Positions 1 to 19,858 of a DNA stretch of 42,109 bases are shown here, one piece after another. Within the stretch, counting starts at the first letter, position 1, and each line of letters starts with the position of its first letter. A program made the position numbers and the translations under genes. The stretch comes from a virus (lineage: Duplodnaviria; Heunggongvirae; Uroviricota; Caudoviricetes), in the IMG/VR virus record IMGVR_UViG_2724679238_000007, positions 1-42,109 of that record; one strand, 5' to 3'. Under the pieces are notes generated by a model. The model saw only the letters and a list, made by a program, of their open reading frames with translations. It was not told the DNA's origin and did no database searches.

Positions 1-1804
<1,804 letters not shown>

Positions 1805-6581: not shown

Positions 6582-7006
6582 CAGATATACTGTTCCAGTG
6601 GCAATTGAAGAGCCTGGGCAATTTTCTTCAATTGCTCCTGTTCTTCAGCCCCAATGCCATCCTGGTCGGCAATATCAATACATAGGCACAGAACATCTAC
6701 CGCATCATTAGTCCCGGCCACATCAGCCAGCTCACGTAAAGCCTGGGCATTAGCTCGGCGCGGCGAGGCTTCATATTGAGCGCGAATATTGGCGCTCATC
6801 TGGGCAATTTCACCGGAGAACGGCGCAAAGGCAGGAAGCGCTGCAATGGTTTTTTCCAATACTGCAATTTCTTTCGCATCGCAGGTGCCGTCAGAGTATG
6901 CAATGGAATATGCGCCCCAGACGGTCGCTTCCACCGCATCACGGTTTTCCATCTTCTTGACTCCGCCAGCCGCTTTGCGGAATTTCTTTTTGAGAATGCC
7001 GAGCAT
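6581..7006 (-). CDS. TerB-domain protein (tellurite-resistance TerB family; P1 TciA-like)
   Basis: 141 aa with TerB-like helical pattern (AVLEKTIAALPAF...DVLCLCIDIADQDG...EEQEQLKKIAQAL). Confidence 0.65.
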   Translation of the reverse strand: MLGILKKKFRKAAGGVKKMENRDAVEATVWGAYSIAYSDGTCDAKEIAVLEKTIAALPAFAPFSGEIAQMSANIRAQYEASPRRANAQALRELADVAGTNDAVDVLCLCIDIADQDGIGAEEQEQLKKIAQALQLPLEQYI

Positions 7007-7267: not shown

Positions 7268-7354
7268 TGGTGGAGAGTAATGGAATCGAACCATCATCGC
7301 TTGCGCAATGGGACGGTTTTCAAGACCGTTTGAGCACCATGCTCCCTACTCTCC
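7268..7354 (-). tRNA. class II tRNA-Ser (anticodon UGA), candidate
   Basis: 87 nt: perfect 7-bp acceptor GGAGAGT/ACTCTCC, anticodon arm ACGGT-CTTGAAA-ACCGT, 17-nt variable arm with a 5-bp stem, T-loop TTCGATT, encoded CCA; D-arm is atypical (4-bp stem, 5-nt loop). Confidence 0.5.
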
Positions 7355-7586
7355 GGCCGTTGTGGTGACCGGTACTGAATCTCCGGCATACGGTGCAGCC
7401 AATTAGGACTACGGACGATCACCGCTCGCGAAAGGGAAGATTTGCGGCCGCATTTCCCTAACATCCAAGAAAGCTATCGCATCAGTCTGCGAATCCACCA
7501 CAACGGAAAGAGCATTTATGGCTCGCATCGCGGGAAAAAGCCCACGGTAGAGAGTCGAACTCTACAAATACTCTTACCTGTTGTGC

Positions 7587-7719
7587 TGGTGCCGGTTAAC
7601 GGATTCGAACCGCTGACCTCTGGCCTAACATCGAATCGTTGTCATTTGACCAGCAAGGCTGTCTACCGAAGTAGAAACGATGCTTTGGCTCTCGTGCTCT
7701 CCCACTGAGCTAAACCGGC
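7587..7719 (-). tRNA. atypical 133-nt tRNA-like gene with Thr-like acceptor, D and T arms but about 57 extra nt in place of a canonical anticodon arm (intervening sequence or pseudogene)
   Basis: Perfect acceptor GCCGGTT/AACCGGC plus A-CCA, D-arm TAGCTCAGTGGGAGAGC, T-arm AGCGG-TTCGAAT-CCGTT; the middle contains a UUCG-capped hairpin (TCTAC-TTCG-GTAGA) and no canonical 5-bp/7-nt anticodon stem-loop; 2 nt from tRNA-Asn. Confidence 0.4.
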
Positions 7720-7721
7720 AT

Positions 7722-7797
7722 TGGCGATGGTGGGTGGATTCGAACCACCGACCAGTTAGTTAACAGCCAACTGCTCTAACCGCTGAGCTACACCATC
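7722..7797 (-). tRNA. tRNA-Asn (anticodon GUU)
   Basis: 76 nt: perfect acceptor GATGGTG/CACCATC, D-arm TAGCTCAGCGGTTAGAGC, anticodon arm GTTGG-CTGTTAA-CTAAC, T-arm GGTGG-TTCGAAT-CCACC, discriminator G plus CCA. Confidence 0.8.
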
Positions 7798-8459
7798 ACT
7801 TGCCGGGTACGTCTCCGGCGAGGGCTTCCACCTCCGTATGCTTTTCGGCGCACCGCGCCCTGGCTGCAATTCGGTAACAGGGGATGCATAACCCTGGCTT
7901 CCAGCGTGATTAGCGCTTTCAGCATGACGGGATATACCCGTGATTGAAACTTTAATGGACCAATGTGAAACACATATGCTGTTACGCCGAATGAAAAAGG
8001 ACGTAACAGGAAAGGGCACTGACCAAAAGATGGCCCCCTTCTCGCTCATCTGGTTAATCGAACCAGCGCCCTTGCCTGTTATGCCTCCCCGTTCCCTAAT
8101 ACACAGACGGGGACACTCTGCGGTCGATTTTTTGACGGGGGACGACTCATACCCCGTGGCGTCTGGCTTCTTAGGCCGCAGCCATCATCAGATCATCGTT
8201 TGCATTTACTTTAATGGTCAGTTTCTAAACCGCCGCAAAGTCGCTAACCATGACGAAAACCCTGAAAAAACGCCCACCCGAAGATGGGCAAACAGGATGT
8301 AAGCTCGTTACGCATTTCGGTATTGCCACTTAGGCGTATGGTCAACCTGGCAACTCGGCGTCATGAGGGGGAAGGAGTCACTACCCCGCCATACTTGCCG
8401 CCGCGCCTGTCGCGGCTAACAGCTAAATCGCTCTATAAATCTCGATTTATCAAGCCCAT

Positions 8460-8487
8460 ATTACACTAATAAATTTATTAGAGCAAT
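8460..8487. promoter_or_regulatory. overlapping inverted pair of C1 operators (palindromic bipartite operator) at the 3' end of dmt
   Basis: 8471-8487 is a perfect reverse match to the C1 consensus; 8460-8476 is a 15/17 forward match; the two overlap on AAATTT; positioned to control leftward transcription into the tRNA-tci-ban-dbn region. Confidence 0.7.
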
Positions 8488-11400
8488 ACAGCAATAACGT
8501 CATGAGCTACACCACGAGTGTTTCCCTTACAAGACACAGAACGTCTGGCAAAAAGAGGTTCCACTCTGAAGCCACTGTCTTGGTAAAGCTCCCTGATGTT
8601 TGGCGCACCACTATTAGTAATGAGGATCTTTGCACCTCGGCGATGAGCATCCATTAGCAGAGATACCAGGCGTTTTTGCTCTTCAAACTTAAAGTCATGA
8701 CCGGAATAGTTTGTGAACCCCTCTGTATTGGGGAGCGGTTCATACGGAGGATCGCAAAAGATGACATCTCCTTCTCCGGCAGCTTCAATCACCGCTGAAA
8801 AATCACCACATACAAACTCAGAACGCCCTTCAGCACCGAGGAAGGCTTCCATCTCCTGTAATGGGAAATACGGAGTTTTATACTTCCCATAACCAACATT
8901 AAACTCACCGGCCTGGTTGTAACGCGTCAATCCGTTAAAACAATGTCGGTTCAGGAACAAAAACGCTGCTGCACGATGTAAATCATCATAGGCTTGTTTG
9001 TTAAACGAATTCCGTACTGCCAGGTATCCTTCCTGTGTGTTGTAGTCCTGGAAAAACCGATGCGCCAGAGTGATAAGTGAATGTCCCTCACGTTGCAGAG
9101 TCCTGTAAAAGTTAATCAGGTCAGCATTCACATCATTTAGCAGATTTTCTTGATATCCGGCATTTATGAAGACAGCTCCGCCACCAACGAAAGGCTCGAT
9201 CAGGCGCTTTCCGTCAGGTAAATGCCTAAAGATTTGTTCAAGAACACCAAATTTTCCGCCGACCCATTTAAATATGGGACGGTCAAATTCTGCCGTTAGC
9301 TTAACTCTCCGTTCTGTTGCTTCATGATTTTTTGCCTGCTGATATGCAGCCTTAATAATCCGCTCACCAATCCATCGCATTACTGGTATCGCCATGCTAT
9401 TGCCGATCGCTTTGTAACGCGGTCCGTCAGCTGCAAGCATCGCGGCCTCTTCTTCGCTTAAATCTGGATAGTGATTGCGAAGGTATGCCAGTTCATCTGA
9501 AGTAACTTTTTTACGCTTTTCCGTCGGGATCAACGTATGCCCATCAGGAAAACCTTGCAGTCTTTCACATTCGACAGGGGTTAGACGGCGCATACTACCG
9601 TCGCCGAGCAATACAATTGGTGCTTCATGGTTACATGTCAAAGTTGGTGCCGAATTATCGGTTTTTATCTCAGCCCCTCCTTGCCCATGTGCCATGGCTA
9701 TTATGTTTGTATCATCGCAAGATCTGATAGCGATGTTTGAAGTATATCTGGTAGTTTCCTTCCCCTCGCCTCTGCTCGGCGCAATATCCCGACGCACGCC
9801 TTCGAACTCAAAAAGTACCGTTGCGGGATCGAGGTCTGTTCGAGCACTTGCGACAACAAACACGCGTCGGCGTCGTTGTGCCACTCCGAAGTATTGGGCA
9901 TCAAGGATTCTCCAGGCCACCTTTCGCTGCGGTCCATAAATACAACCACACTGCGGCCACTTTGGAGCATGGCAACCGGTTTTGACATCCCACCGCCAGA
10001 ACGCGTTACTTTTTCGTGATTCAGGTCGATCACCTGGTTCGAATGGCGCATCTTCTCCAGCCAATCCGGCAAGGAAACATCCAAAGGCGTTATCTGCCGA
10101 TGACAAGACTCCTGGGACATTTTCCCAGACGATAACGGCTGGTTTGAGAAATGACTCAGCCCGTTTGTCGTCAATTGCATTTGCAAGCTCCACATACTTT
10201 AAAGTTAGCGCGCCACGCTCATCATCAAGCCCACCACGTAATCCCGCGATACTGAATGCCTGACAGTTATGGACCACCGCACCATTGAGGATATAGGAAT
10301 GATCACCTTCGACTTCTATGTTGTATACAGTATCTAGGCCTACCGATTTAAACTCTTTGACTGTTCGTAAAAGCATTCCATGAGCCAATCTTGATTTACG
10401 TGACAATTTCTGCGGGCAGATTGTTACCTGATAATAATTCCGTTGATTTACCACGCGATCCTCGATCACTTTTTTGGGCTCAACTTCAATAAAGCTGACC
10501 GAAGAAACATAACCACAAGTCTGTGACACCCCCGCAACGCCCCAAGCAAGCGCAGGACTAACACTATTAATTCTAAATCCCGCTTTACCACTTGGTGTCC
10601 CATCAGTATCAAGATAGCCTTGTAAAAACACATGACGCAATGGATGCGACATCACCCATGCAGGGATACGCTTAGCATGGCTTAACTCGCCAAAATGTTC
10701 ATTAAGCCAATTGGCATAACACGTATCATTCAAGGTTACTTTGATGCTCCCTCGGATTTCTCTTGCCACGGAAAATATGTTTTCTGGTATGCGACAATGA
10801 AACTTTCTCAATTTCTGGCAATTTATGCCAAAAACAACCGCCTTCTTAGATTTACCTCTCCATCTCCTAATATATCCATCGCCAACATAAGCGCCCGCAA
10901 GATACATAGCCTGTTCTTCAGACAAGAACCGAGAACAAATATCTGGAGATGCAATATTGAAATTAGTTAGAGCGCACCATTGATATCCTGGCATATCACA
11001 TGCTGCTCGCCATTCCGGTTCAGACAACAACTCTCTCTTAAAATATGTGCCATTTTTCCGGGTGTTTTGGGCTTTCCACCGAACAGCTAGGAAGGGATGG
11101 TCATTGGTTGTTCTTATACCTAAAGGCTGCCCAACGGCATTAAGTAACCCCGTATTAGCTATTTTTGAACCAACTCTTTTTACTTGTTGTAACCGCCCGA
11201 GATGACTGACTACGTAATCGCCAGGGCAAACATCTTCTATTGGTTTATAACCATTTTTACAAAGAACCATATGCCCCGCGGTAAAACATGGTGTTCCCCC
11301 GACGAGCACGTCAGGGGATTCGATTTCCCCAGCCAGGACTTTTTTGGCAAGTTTAGTCATGTCGCCAAGGTTGGCGACATGGGGCCAGCGGTGCGCAAGA

Positions 11401-11519
11401 ACGGCAGATGGAAAAGGCTCGATTTCAGCAAACCAAGCCGGACGCATACCCAACGGTTCCCAGGCAATACTCGCAGCTTCTATTCCACTGCAAACAGATC
11501 CATAGCACAGCTCTTTCAC
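8478..11519 (-). CDS. dmt: bifunctional DNA methyltransferase: N-terminal C5-cytosine MTase fused to C-terminal Dam-like N6-adenine MTase, interrupted in-frame by an intein
   Basis: GTG start with GGAGAGG SD, overlapping the hrdC stop. C5-MTase motifs include ENV (VWENVPG), QRRRRVFVV and AIGNSM; the PCQ motif is split as GGTP|intein|CQAFSIAG. Dam-like half has FKWVGGK and DPPY and is alignable to E. coli Dam as recalled. Confidence 0.9.
10266..11288 (-). mobile_element. intein (341 aa) with Hint splicing blocks and a LAGLIDADG homing-endonuclease domain, inserted at the catalytic Cys of the C5-MTase PCQ motif
   Basis: Begins with Cys ([10 protein letters not shown]...), block B-like TNDHPF, two LAGLIDADG motifs ([12 protein letters not shown] and [11 protein letters not shown]), ends ...ILNGAVVHN followed by +1 Cys; in-silico excision restores [12 protein letters not shown]. 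Confidence 0.8.
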
Positions 11520-12421
11520 AGCTTAGCCTCTCCACCAAGGGCATTTACCAGAGCATCAACCAGGCACGAAATTTCACTGGTCAACAGGAAGAAATCTGCG
11601 TCCAGTCGCTGCGCAACATCTTCACTATCGATATCAGAGTTCTGCTCAAGCAATTCATCCGCAAATTTGACGCTGGTAAGGCTGAAGTTATGGTCCAGTG
11701 TAAATTTAATGCGGTTCTGCCAGTCGAGTGCCAACTTAGTGACGAGCTTGCCAGCTTCCAGGTGTGTGGAAATTTCATCGCTTCCCAAATCCTGCTTTTT
11801 CACTCGGGCAATACCGCCATCCTCAAGCACTGCCTTAAGTTCTGCCGCATCCCCCATTTGAAATCCCTGTGGAGCACTACCATCACGTACCCAGTCGGTC
11901 AGCGTTAATTCAATGGGATTTTCAACACTTAGGGGAACAACAGGAAGAGAACCCAGAGACTTACGCATAAGTGCGAGCATATCCTCTGCCTGCCGCGCGC
12001 TGGCATTGATATAGATACGTTTAGTTGAACCGTCGTAGATCGCCTGGATAACAGAAAACTTTGAAAAAGCCCGTGGCAGAAGAGAATGCAGAACTTCGTC
12101 TTTCAGGGAGTCCTTCTCTGTTTTCTTCAGTTTACGCGCTTGTTCTTGCTCAAGTTTTTCAATTTTTTCTTGAATAGCTCGCTGGATAACCGGCGGGGGA
12201 AGAATTTTTGTTTCGCGCTTTGCTTCAACAAGGATAAAACCATTTCCATGCATAGCGATAACTTCGGAATTATCACCAAATGGCGATACAAAACCGAACT
12301 TGGCCATATCCTGACTACCGCATGGCGTGAAAAGGATCATTTTCTTTTTATCTTCTAAGTCGGTCAGATCCGCCTCACGAGAAAGTTTATAAATAGTAAT
12401 GTTTTTCCAGTGCTTAAACAT
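11516..12421 (-). CDS. hrdC: recombination-associated protein RdgC homologue
   Basis: 301 aa from the internal ATG ([16 protein letters not shown]...), alignable along its length to E. coli RdgC as recalled ([11 protein letters not shown]..., [25 protein letters not shown]..., [12 protein letters not shown]...). The first 38 codons of the tracked ORF are probably not translated. Confidence 0.85.
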
Positions 12422-12698
12422 GTTGTAACCCTTGAATATCAACCACAGAAAGCTCGTCTTTGTAGAAAAAGGCCAGGTTGTGGCACCCCCTCGTTTGAGC
12501 GTATGAGCTGGGACCAATTTCGTTCTTCCAGACAAATGGCTTCAAATCCGTACGGCGAAGCATAAAAACGCGATTTGTTCCGCTCTGATTCCCAATGAGG
12601 CAAAAGCCTTCTTTCACCTTGATAGCCTGCAAGTTGTCGAGTTCACCGCTGGTTACACGGCTATCGAACTCCTTGCGGCTTATTAGCTCCATCTGCAT
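12414..12698 (-). CDS. hypothetical protein (first gene of the C1-controlled operon containing hrdC and dmt)
   Basis: Internal ATG at 12698 has a GGAG SD 7 nt upstream; the longer ORF would start inside the operator/promoter. Confidence 0.4.
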
Positions 12699-12769
12699 CT
12701 GACGACTCCAAACAAATGCCCATTGAAGGACGATGGCTGAATGGTACCGAAAACACGACATAAAAAACA

Positions 12770-12786
12770 ATATTTATTAGAGCAAT
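12770..12786. promoter_or_regulatory. C1-repressor operator upstream of the hrdC-dmt operon
   Basis: ATATTTATTAGAGCAAT is a 16/17 reverse match to the C1 consensus. Confidence 0.65.
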
Positions 12787-12867
12787 TTTACAATAGATAA
12801 ACGCCATGTAGCCCACAAACAACCTAAGTTAAAATAACGAAAATCAGAGCAAATAATTGGTGATGAC

Positions 12868-13152
12868 GTGGCAAGTATTGCAACAAAAGACAGCATTTGT
12901 TCGGGGCACGGAGGATTCCCATCCAGGCCTCCTGTAGAGAGTGAACCACTACTTAAAGTCAACGGAGTCGAAGTGTTAGTTGATGGTAAGCAATATGCAC
13001 AGCATACCGATGGAAACAGTACGCACGGTGGGCAAGCTATATCAACCCGGGCATGGTTTACCGTCAATGGTAAAGGGATCGTATGCGTTGGTGACCCTGT
13101 TTCATGCGGCTCTACCGTAGCGTCAGGAGACGGCCTGGTTCAGGTAAGTTAG
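12868..13152 (+). CDS. PAAR-like domain protein (candidate spike-tip protein)
   Basis: 94 aa, GTG start; motifs DSICSGHGG, VNGVEVLVDG and VNGKGIVCVGDPVSCGSTVASGDGLV resemble PAAR repeats with Cys/His metal ligands. Confidence 0.45.
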   Translation: MASIATKDSICSGHGGFPSRPPVESEPLLKVNGVEVLVDGKQYAQHTDGNSTHGGQAISTRAWFTVNGKGIVCVGDPVSCGSTVASGDGLVQVS

Positions 13153-13160
13153 GAGACATC

Positions 13161-13949
13161 ATGCTGGAAAAAGACTACCAGTTATCCGCATATAAAAAAT
13201 TGGCCGCCGCCGGTGGGATGAAAACACCTGGTGCCATAACATCGGCACGAAACAGTGCTAACACAGCAAAACTGCTTGCAGAAGAATTGACCGGATTAAT
13301 TCTGGATACAATTGTCTATCCCGACACTATTACCAGCTATGTTTCAACGATCAGAACAACCACAACCGGCTTAACGAACATTGGAGAACTGGCAACTAAG
13401 CACGCGGACCTGTTGGCTGGTTATGCAGATCTGTCAATGCTGCTTCAACTCGATATTGGTTGGGATGTTTACTGCCGTGCTAATGAGCGAGAAGTTTCAG
13501 AACTGCCGATCTCTATTGCCATTGGTGATGTGACTATTACTAAATCGCTTGAGGACGCTGTAAACGCGCTTAATACATCAAGTTTAGTTGCTGCTATGGG
13601 GGAGATTAACAAGACCCTTAACACTGGCTCAGGAAGCTCGTCAGGCTCTAATTCAGGCGGTGGGATTGCCACTCCCCCACCAGCACTAACAGAAAAGCAA
13701 ATTGAAGCTCTGAAAGTAGCAACTGAACAGTTTGGGGTAGTTTTCAACCAAACAACAGCGCCCACAACTGCGTTGCAACAGCAGTATGAACGGGCGAAGG
13801 AAAGCGCAAGCATAGCCATAACTGCTTATAACCGTGCTATTGGTACCGCGCTTGCGGAAGCATCAGCAAATAAGGCCAGCACAGCCAGCGCAGTCGCAGC
13901 TTTAGTTCCTGATTCTGTTCTTGATGAATTAAATAAGGCTGCACAGTAA
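13161..13949 (+). CDS. hypothetical protein (Ser/Thr/Ala-rich)
   Basis: ATG at 13161 preceded by AGGAGA SD; 262 aa; no recognisable motif. Confidence 0.5.
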   Translation: MLEKDYQLSAYKKLAAAGGMKTPGAITSARNSANTAKLLAEELTGLILDTIVYPDTITSYVSTIRTTTTGLTNIGELATKHADLLAGYADLSMLLQLDIGWDVYCRANEREVSELPISIAIGDVTITKSLEDAVNALNTSSLVAAMGEINKTLNTGSGSSSGSNSGGGIATPPPALTEKQIEALKVATEQFGVVFNQTTAPTTALQQQYERAKESASIAITAYNRAIGTALAEASANKASTASAVAALVPDSVLDELNKAAQ

Positions 13950-13987
13950 CAAAGGACTTCACAGATAATTTTCTTCAGGAGGAAGGC

Positions 13988-14410
13988 ATGTCATTCTTTT
14001 CTACGTTAAAAACAGCTTTGTCTTTGAAGGAGAAACTTGCTGCTACTGGTGTTCTTGTTCTGATTTGCGCACTCGCTGGTGCAGGGTTTGCATGGGAGCA
14101 TTATCAGTTAAAGCAAGCCTTAGAGAAAATTGGCAGTCTTGATCAAGCTGTTAAGGAACGAGATAAGTCAATCAGCGAGCTTAATCAGACCATTGAGACT
14201 ATGAACAAAGCAGATCAACATTTTCACAGCCAGGAAGTGAAAAATGAATTAGAACAAGCCAAGTATGCTGACAGGCAAATGGAACGAAAAGCAGAAGTTC
14301 AGAAACAACTGGTTGCGGTGGGTAATGTTCGCCAGCGCATTCCTGCTGACACTCAGCGGTTGCTCCGGGAGTCGATCAGCGAATTTAACTCCGACGCCGA
14401 CAAAGGTTAA
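13988..14410 (+). CDS. i-spanin-like protein (Rz-type: N-terminal transmembrane helix plus coiled-coil periplasmic domain)
   Basis: 140 aa; hydrophobic segment VLVLICALAGAGFAW followed by a charged heptad-like region; overlaps the next lipoprotein gene in another frame. Confidence 0.5.
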   Translation: MSFFSTLKTALSLKEKLAATGVLVLICALAGAGFAWEHYQLKQALEKIGSLDQAVKERDKSISELNQTIETMNKADQHFHSQEVKNELEQAKYADRQMERKAEVQKQLVAVGNVRQRIPADTQRLLRESISEFNSDADKG

Positions 14411-14576
14411 CTACCCTGCCCCAAAAAGTGCATTTATGTGCAGGATGCCTGAGTTTAGCAGTGAATATTTTGATGATCTGCCAGCCTATATCCTCGATAC
14501 AGAAACGATGCTGATGGGGATTAACAGGAAGAATCGCAACGTCAATGATTACAACCGCGCTATCAGCGGTAACTAA
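14325..14576 (+). CDS. o-spanin-like outer-membrane lipoprotein (Rz1-type), overlapping the i-spanin gene
   Basis: Lipobox LTLSGC; start inside the preceding gene in the +1 frame with a GGTGGG SD; Pro-rich mature region. An alternative start at 14265 is possible. Confidence 0.5.
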   Translation: MFASAFLLTLSGCSGSRSANLTPTPTKVNYPAPKSAFMCRMPEFSSEYFDDLPAYILDTETMLMGINRKNRNVNDYNRAISGN

Positions 14577-19830: not shown

Positions 19831-19858
19831 AAAGTCAACAAGTGACTTTTAATAAAAT
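19831..19858 (+). promoter_or_regulatory. candidate late promoter upstream of the head gene
   Basis: Inverted repeat AAAGTCA-acaag-TGACTTT followed by TTAATAAAAT with no recognisable -35; fits the general Lpa-type late promoter layout as recalled. Confidence 0.3.

Follow-up and report, generated by a model that had tools for sequence, protein, structure and literature searches.

UpfC, a PAAR-type spike-tip protein encoded 11 kb from the spike gene in a P1-like phage

The upfC locus

The DNA analysed here, hereafter the window, is the whole 42,109-nucleotide stretch of a tailed virus of the Caudoviricetes (IMG/VR record IMGVR_UViG_2724679238_000007). It contains a short gene, upfC, which has the divergent uhr-hrdC-dmt operon directly upstream on the other strand. 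The gene is the first of a co-oriented series, upfC-upfB-ppfA-mlp-upfA, that combines tail-tip and lysis functions. The features needed below are as follows.

163..1179, plus strand: gene 6, baseplate hub carrying the spike (PDB 9vzk_1 'Gp6', E 3e-225)
1172..1804, plus strand: gene 5, trimeric beta-helical tail spike and partner of UpfC (PDB 9vzk_q 'Gp5', E 1.2e-134, 210/210 residues)
12770..12786, minus strand: C1 operator Odmt with Pdmt of the divergent early uhr-hrdC-dmt operon (P1 annotation, by position)
12859..12863, plus strand: GGTGA, likely Shine-Dalgarno sequence of upfC by its position 4 nt before the GTG
12868..13152, plus strand: upfC, 94-aa PAAR-type spike-tip protein, with a GTG start and a TAG stop at 13150-13152
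13151..13155, plus strand: AGGAG, Shine-Dalgarno sequence of upfB, overlapping the upfC stop codon
13161..13949, plus strand: upfB, 262 aa, proposed trimeric 'tripod' at the spike tip (P1 annotation; PHROG 1559 at 3.5e-135)
13988..14410, plus strand: ppfA, Rz-like spanin family (PHROGs)
14265..14576, plus strand: mlp, Rz-like spanin family (PHROGs), embedded in ppfA as Rz1 is in Rz

Odmt was placed by transfer from positions 6771-6787 of locus L001 (offset 5999), and its sequence, atatttattagagcaat, was seen in the window. The P1 reference record still labels ppfA 'possible periplasmic function'.

The product of upfC, MASIATKDSICSGHGGFPSRPPVESEPLLKVNGVEVLVDGKQYAQHTDGNSTHGGQAISTRAWFTVNGKGIVCVGDPVSCGSTVASGDGLVQVS, is Gly-rich and has three His and three Cys residues. 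When the window was compared with P1, RCS47 and Ro157c2YLVW, the upfC frame showed 4 to 14 synonymous and 0 to 1 non-synonymous codon differences; the figures against P1 and RCS47 were 13 to 14 and 1. A large protein collection yielded 71 homologues, nearly all of exactly 94 aa, on contigs that are mostly 80-100 kb long, a size typical of P1-like phage-plasmids. The ORF at 12868..13152 is a genuine coding sequence and not a chance one.

The start of upfB calls for comment. The P1 and RCS47 records place it at the equivalent of window position 13104, where it overlaps upfC by 49 nt. The alignment of PHROG 1559 (263 positions) with the 13161 product begins at profile position 1, a UpfB homologue from Serratia aligns from M1 to the Met encoded by ATG 13161, and the record MH160767 annotates the 13161 start. 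In the extension, 13104-13160, substitutions among P1-like phages are mostly non-synonymous in the upfB frame, yet synonymous in the upfC frame. The P1 and RCS47 start is thus probably 57 nt too far upstream and the true start ATG 13161. In favour of this ATG there is also the strong AGGAG site 5 nt before it, whose overlap with the upfC stop codon implies that translation of upfB may be coupled to that of upfC.

UpfB itself had no sequence match in the PDB and no Pfam or NCBIfam family, so its 'tripod' role rests on an AlphaFold3 model fitted to a medium-resolution map (PMC12810830). The Serratia homologue is 24% identical to UpfB (pairwise BLASTP, E 2e-18), and a tblastn search with it against the window gave no match. 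The UpfB family is fast-evolving. The pairing of upfC with upfB is kept in the Serratia P1-like elements.

Identity with UpfC of phage P1

Over 2.5 kb (window positions 12000-14500) the DNA shares 95-97% identity with Punavirus genomes, among them P1, P7 and RCS47. The reference entry for P1 calls the gene upfC (P1_gp066); its depositors note 31% identity of the product to that of T4 ORF 5.4, and RefSeq names the product 'PAAR motif of membran proteins'. A search of PDB sequences returned chain A of 9vyi, 'UpfC', identical at 93 of the 94 positions; the sole substitution relative to reference P1 UpfC is S86 here for A86 there. Entry 9vyi, released on 2025-10-22, is 'Cryo-EM structure of bacteriophage P1 baseplate in C1'. 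Both near-identity and synteny (the same flanking genes, in P1-group phages) place the gene in the P1 upfC orthologue group. As in P1, uhr-hrdC-dmt diverges upstream and upfB-ppfA-mlp-upfA follows downstream, each oriented as in that phage; the dmt gene differs in that it contains an intein here and none in reference P1.

Much is already published on this protein. Gonzales et al. 2022 matched UpfC to the T4 spike tip gp5.4 by HHpred (PMC9024508). In the same study, deletion of upfC left plaquing unaffected and UpfC was undetected by LC-MS/MS of P1 virions, which the authors attributed to its small size and single copy per virion (PMC9024508). A genome-wide CRISPRi screen found both upfC and upfB non-essential (PMC10695390). 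A 2025 preprint described UpfC as the tip of the P1 needle and placed an unrefined AlphaFold multimer in the map (bioRxiv 2025.07.21.665459). A 2026 paper in PLoS Pathogens then gave the P1 baseplate at 3.2 A and included atomic models of the 'spike proteins (gp5 and UpfC)' (PMC12810830). Its authors found trimeric gp5 with monomeric UpfC strikingly similar to T4 gp5/gp5.4, and proposed a 'tripod' of three UpfB trimers with its anchor at the spike tip (PMC12810830).

UpfC as a spike tip is therefore already known, annotated and characterised, and the finding is not new. It amounts to little as a discovery, since the likeness to T4 ORF 5.4 stands in the P1 record, the role was predicted in 2022 and the cryo-EM maps appeared in 2025-2026. 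The preliminary description of this DNA, which was made from the sequence alone, had called a PAAR-like protein of the kind that sharpens the spike of contractile injection systems. That call proved correct, and experiments on P1 UpfC, which is 99% identical, have shown the sharpening role (PDB 9vyi; PMC12810830).

PAAR family membership

Three profile collections were compared with UpfC. The Pfam profile PAAR_motif (PF05488) matched residues 51-91 with E 8.5e-6 and 26.4 bits, 0.6 bit short of the gathering cut-off of 27, and most UpfC homologues have a precomputed PF05488 match. PHROG 281, 'PAAR motif', matched residues 1-93 at 2e-30. The NCBIfam profile NF033420 (T6SS_PAAR_dom) aligned with residues 4-93 of 94 at 36.3 bits, and its equivalog cut-off is 124. 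A Pfam score just under the threshold together with an NCBIfam score far under it marks UpfC as a divergent phage-type member and not a T6SS PAAR protein. The profile search had been proposed beforehand as a check on PAAR membership, and its outcome, a near-threshold match to PF05488 and a strong one to PHROG 281, shows a clear relationship to the family, although the Pfam score falls formally just short. Searches of PDB sequences returned spike-tip and PAAR proteins: T4 gp5.4 (5iv5_ZA, 8.6e-8; 4ku0_D, 1.2e-7), a Klebsiella phage spike tip (9f4b_BA, 4.8e-10) and the Vibrio cholerae PAAR protein VCA0105 (4jiv_D, 3.7e-4).

Residue conservation was read from an alignment of 24 homologues with 40-84% identity to the query. 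H14, H46, H53 and C80 are invariant in 24/24, and further invariant columns include G13, N32, G33, G55, D76, P77, S79, G81, S82 and G87. The Gly/Cys/His pattern that had first suggested a PAAR protein is thus real. In a pairwise alignment, H14/H46/H53/C80 stand opposite the His/His/His/Cys of gp5.4, which form a tetrahedral iron site at the hairpin tips of that protein (PMC12407873). By conservation of these ligands, UpfC is predicted to have an apical tetrahedral metal site of three His and one Cys.

The literal tetrapeptide P-A-A-R is absent from all 94 residues of UpfC, as read directly from the sequence. By our own reading, the equivalent positions lie after NG and before GD or DG, and are occupied by the hydrophobic strands NGVEVLVDG and NGKGIVCVGD. 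For T4 gp5.4, only 'a similar sequence' is mentioned where the PAAR motif would stand (PMC12407873). The literal motif appears not to be needed for the fold.

An AlphaFold2 model of UpfC, built from the homologue alignment, is all-beta with a mean pLDDT of 96.7 and a pTM of 0.86. Foldseek against the PDB placed it closest to the P1 baseplate entry 9vyi (TM 0.96, rmsd 0.7) and then to 9f4b_BA (0.93); the T6SS PAAR proteins VCA0105 (4jiv_D) and E. coli c1882 (4jiw_D) gave 0.88 and 0.87, T4 gp5.4 (4ku0_D) 0.86, and phiKZ gp163.1 0.68. The best matches are only spike-tip and PAAR proteins, and all non-PAAR structures lie below them, at TM about 0.3. By its confidence and its Foldseek matches, the model has the conical all-beta fold with pseudo-threefold symmetry. 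Structure prediction, a further check proposed for the PAAR assignment, accordingly gave the PAAR cone; against solved structures of the PAAR and spike-tip type its TM values are 0.86-0.96.

We are highly confident that the ORF is the upfC of a P1-like phage (Punavirus) and that its product, a minimal PAAR-type spike tip consisting of one domain, corresponds to T4 gp5.4.

Comparison with T4 gp5.4 and T6SS PAAR proteins

UpfC resembles T4 gp5.4 (97 aa) in size, in its conical PAAR fold (TM 0.86), in its metal ligands (three His plus one Cys), in sitting singly on the trimeric gp5 beta-helix and in being dispensable for plaques. The pair gp5.4/UpfC is the only T4-P1 tail protein pair that BLAST can detect (PMC12407873). 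Identity between the two is only about 28-31%. The systems differ in other respects. The T4 gene for gp5.4 is located beside gene 5, whereas upfC is 11 kb from gene 5; P1 gp5 has no lysozyme domain, unlike T4 gp5; and the P1 tip is reported to bear the extra UpfB tripod (PMC12810830).

With the T6SS PAAR proteins (VCA0105, 4jiv; c1882, 4jiw; PF05488), UpfC shares the fold (TM 0.87-0.88) and the arrangement of a metal-stabilised cone that sharpens a trimeric spike of the VgrG/gp5 type. Identity to them is 14-22%, and UpfC is without literal PAAR tetrapeptides. UpfC is also a part of a phage virion, with no effector extension, and not a component of a secretion system.

Genomic position of upfC

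Gene 5 and gene 6 are both about 11 kb upstream of upfC. The product of gene 5 also matches PHROG 430, 'baseplate hub subunit and tail lysozyme'. The preliminary description had placed a small PAAR gene away from the spike gene and near hrdC-dmt, and this holds: the spike at 1172..1804 is gp5, and the operon adjoins upfC. It had also assigned the gene to the early region, which stands only in part. The gene does adjoin the early uhr-hrdC-dmt operon, but the co-oriented genes downstream are of late type and the kinetics of upfC itself are late.

Nor is upfC isolated from structural genes, as it directly precedes upfB, the proposed tail-tip tripod. The baseplate and tail genes of the window fall into several separate clusters, so the separation of upfC from gene 5 is unremarkable. 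A distant UpfC homologue (43% identity) belongs to a P2-like baseplate operon, where a gpV spike gene and gpW/gp25 flank it; this is the more usual arrangement. In the Serratia P1-like elements, the gene for the 258-aa UpfB homologue overlaps the end of a PAAR gene (62% identity) by one base and is itself followed by a spanin-like gene; the gp6 and gp5 homologues are about 7 kb away.

An additional gene of 226 aa abuts the PAAR gene in the Serratia-type elements (7321..8001 in both L004 and L005), its end sharing one base with the PAAR start. It matched no Pfam family and has no counterpart in the window; in these elements its product may be one more part of the tail tip.

Expression timing

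Published RNA-seq of P1vir infection allowed the timing of upfC to be compared with that of its neighbours (PMC8201110, Table S1). Between 10 and 30 min, the log fold change rose from 4.86 to 10.63 for upfC and from 4.12 to 11.07 for upfB. The corresponding values were 4.23 and 9.90 for gene 5, 3.60 and 10.81 for gene 6, and 5.44 and 12.07 for gene 23. The adjoining uhr, hrdC and dmt were already at 8.6-9.4 at 10 min and reached 11.1-12.0 at 30 min. By these values upfC behaves like the late structural genes and unlike uhr, hrdC and dmt. The late kinetics of upfC-upfB are shared by ppfA and mlp (PMC8201110). Thus upfC belongs with upfB to a small late tail-tip module and is no orphan in the early region.

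We scanned for late promoters with an Lpa-type box derived from LP23 and the promoter upstream of gene R (AAGTNACTT, then 3-6 nt, then TANNNT), a consensus built on very few examples. The scan recovered the sites at 19840 (LP23) and 40184 (upstream of R). No such box was present on the plus strand between 11000 and 13000 with two mismatches allowed, which is weak evidence given so few examples, and the P1 record annotates no promoter upstream of upfC. A sigma-70-like site at 12829..12857 (9/12), the only one that a generic scan gave, was considered and rejected as uninformative: it leaves no room for a leader with a ribosome-binding site, and such sites are no commoner here than in shuffled sequence.

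Late kinetics of upfC-upfB with no recognisable late promoter support one conjecture, which we regard as unlikely, namely that upfC-upfB-ppfA(Rz)-mlp(Rz1)-upfA forms a self-contained late module of tail-tip and spanin genes, set between the dmt operon and the plasmid replicon and switched on late without a recognisable Lpa-type promoter. If true, it would mean either a late transcription route not yet described in P1 or a horizontally exchangeable tail-tip cassette that tunes envelope penetration.

Alternative readings of the gene

Three other readings of the ORF were weighed against a spike tip. That it is a chance or mis-called ORF, the real gene being the longer upfB frame or an antisense 96-aa ORF at 12777..13067, is suggested by the GTG start, the short length, the overlapping ORFs on both strands and the fact that upfC is unannotated in one deposited P1-like genome (MH160767). 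We give this next to no credence. The 13-14 synonymous differences against one non-synonymous difference to P1 and RCS47, the 71 homologues that keep the invariant His, Cys and Gly columns down to 40% identity, and a very confident predicted fold all speak against it, and UpfC has been built into a cryo-EM map. This reading is already refuted, both by the pattern of conservation and by the structure. The enzymatic reading, that UpfC is an 'alanine racemase', comes from the names of many NCBI homologue records (among them the source names of P0005, P0007, P0009, P0015, P0028 and P0038), and its probability is practically nil. A 94-aa all-beta protein that matched only PAAR families in Pfam, PHROGs and NCBIfam, and only PAAR or spike-tip structures in Foldseek, gave no match to a racemase-family profile or fold, and some of the same or closely related clusters are elsewhere named 'PAAR domain-containing protein'. 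The naming looks like a propagated annotation error.

More can be said for UpfC as a PAAR protein of the moron or host-takeover kind, or one that carries effectors in the T6SS manner, expressed from the early or plasmid region and acting in the cell. The category of PHROG 281 is 'moron, auxiliary metabolic gene and host takeover' and its label 'PAAR motif of membran proteins', upfC has the plasmid replicon and the dmt operon, which is under C1 control, as neighbours, the protein was unseen in virion LC-MS/MS (PMC9024508), and the gene is non-essential (PMC9024508, PMC10695390). We nevertheless consider this very improbable. UpfC is a bare PAAR cone of 94 aa with no N- or C-terminal extension for an effector, and it falls far short of the equivalog cut-off for T6SS PAAR domains. 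Maps of the P1 virion have it modelled on the gp5 spike, its gene follows the late kinetics of structural genes (PMC8201110), and a distant homologue is found inside a baseplate operon. A PAAR-type spike tip remains the reading that we adopt.

The names given to this family are a matter of their own. 'Alanine racemase' was assigned by NCBI or UniRef to P0005, P0007, P0009, P0011, P0015, P0028, P0038 and P0042, and the 'moron' category of PHROG 281 contrasts with a virion role at the spike tip. Annotation pipelines still propagate these two labels, along with the omission of upfC from some genomes and a probably over-extended upfB start.

Proposed role at the spike tip

The UpfC monomer is a small beta-structured cone of pseudo-threefold symmetry that, in the published P1 structure, caps the blunt end of the trimeric gp5 beta-helix (PDB 9vyi; PMC12810830). 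The tetrahedral metal site of H14/H46/H53/C80 would tie the hairpin tips together at the apex and make it rigid, as suggested by conservation and by gp5.4. On contraction of the sheath, the sharpened and stiffened tip would presumably meet the outer membrane first, and tube and spike would be driven through behind it. Three UpfB trimers are reportedly anchored at the P1 tip as well, on the basis of a model fitted to a medium-resolution map (PMC12810830). In T4, the gp5.4 mutant H14A lost binding to the spike (PMC12407873). UpfC is dispensable for plaques in the laboratory; from the analogy with T4 gp5.4, it probably aids fitness or helps the phage to infect hosts whose envelope is altered.

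An intein in Dmt

The methyltransferase ORF dmt (8478..11519, minus strand) encodes 1013 aa here and 754 aa in reference P1. Intein DNA at approximately 10266..11291 splits the C5-cytosine methylase domain of Dmt directly after the catalytic 'GGTPC' motif. The intein contains a LAGLIDADG homing endonuclease (Pfam Hint_2, LAGLIDADG_3 and Intein_splicing). It is polymorphic: in a phage collection it occurred at an identity of at least 99% in only 3 distinct P1-like phages, and it is absent from NC_005856. At the same identity of at least 99%, it is present in 133 plasmid records from E. coli, E. albertii and Salmonella.
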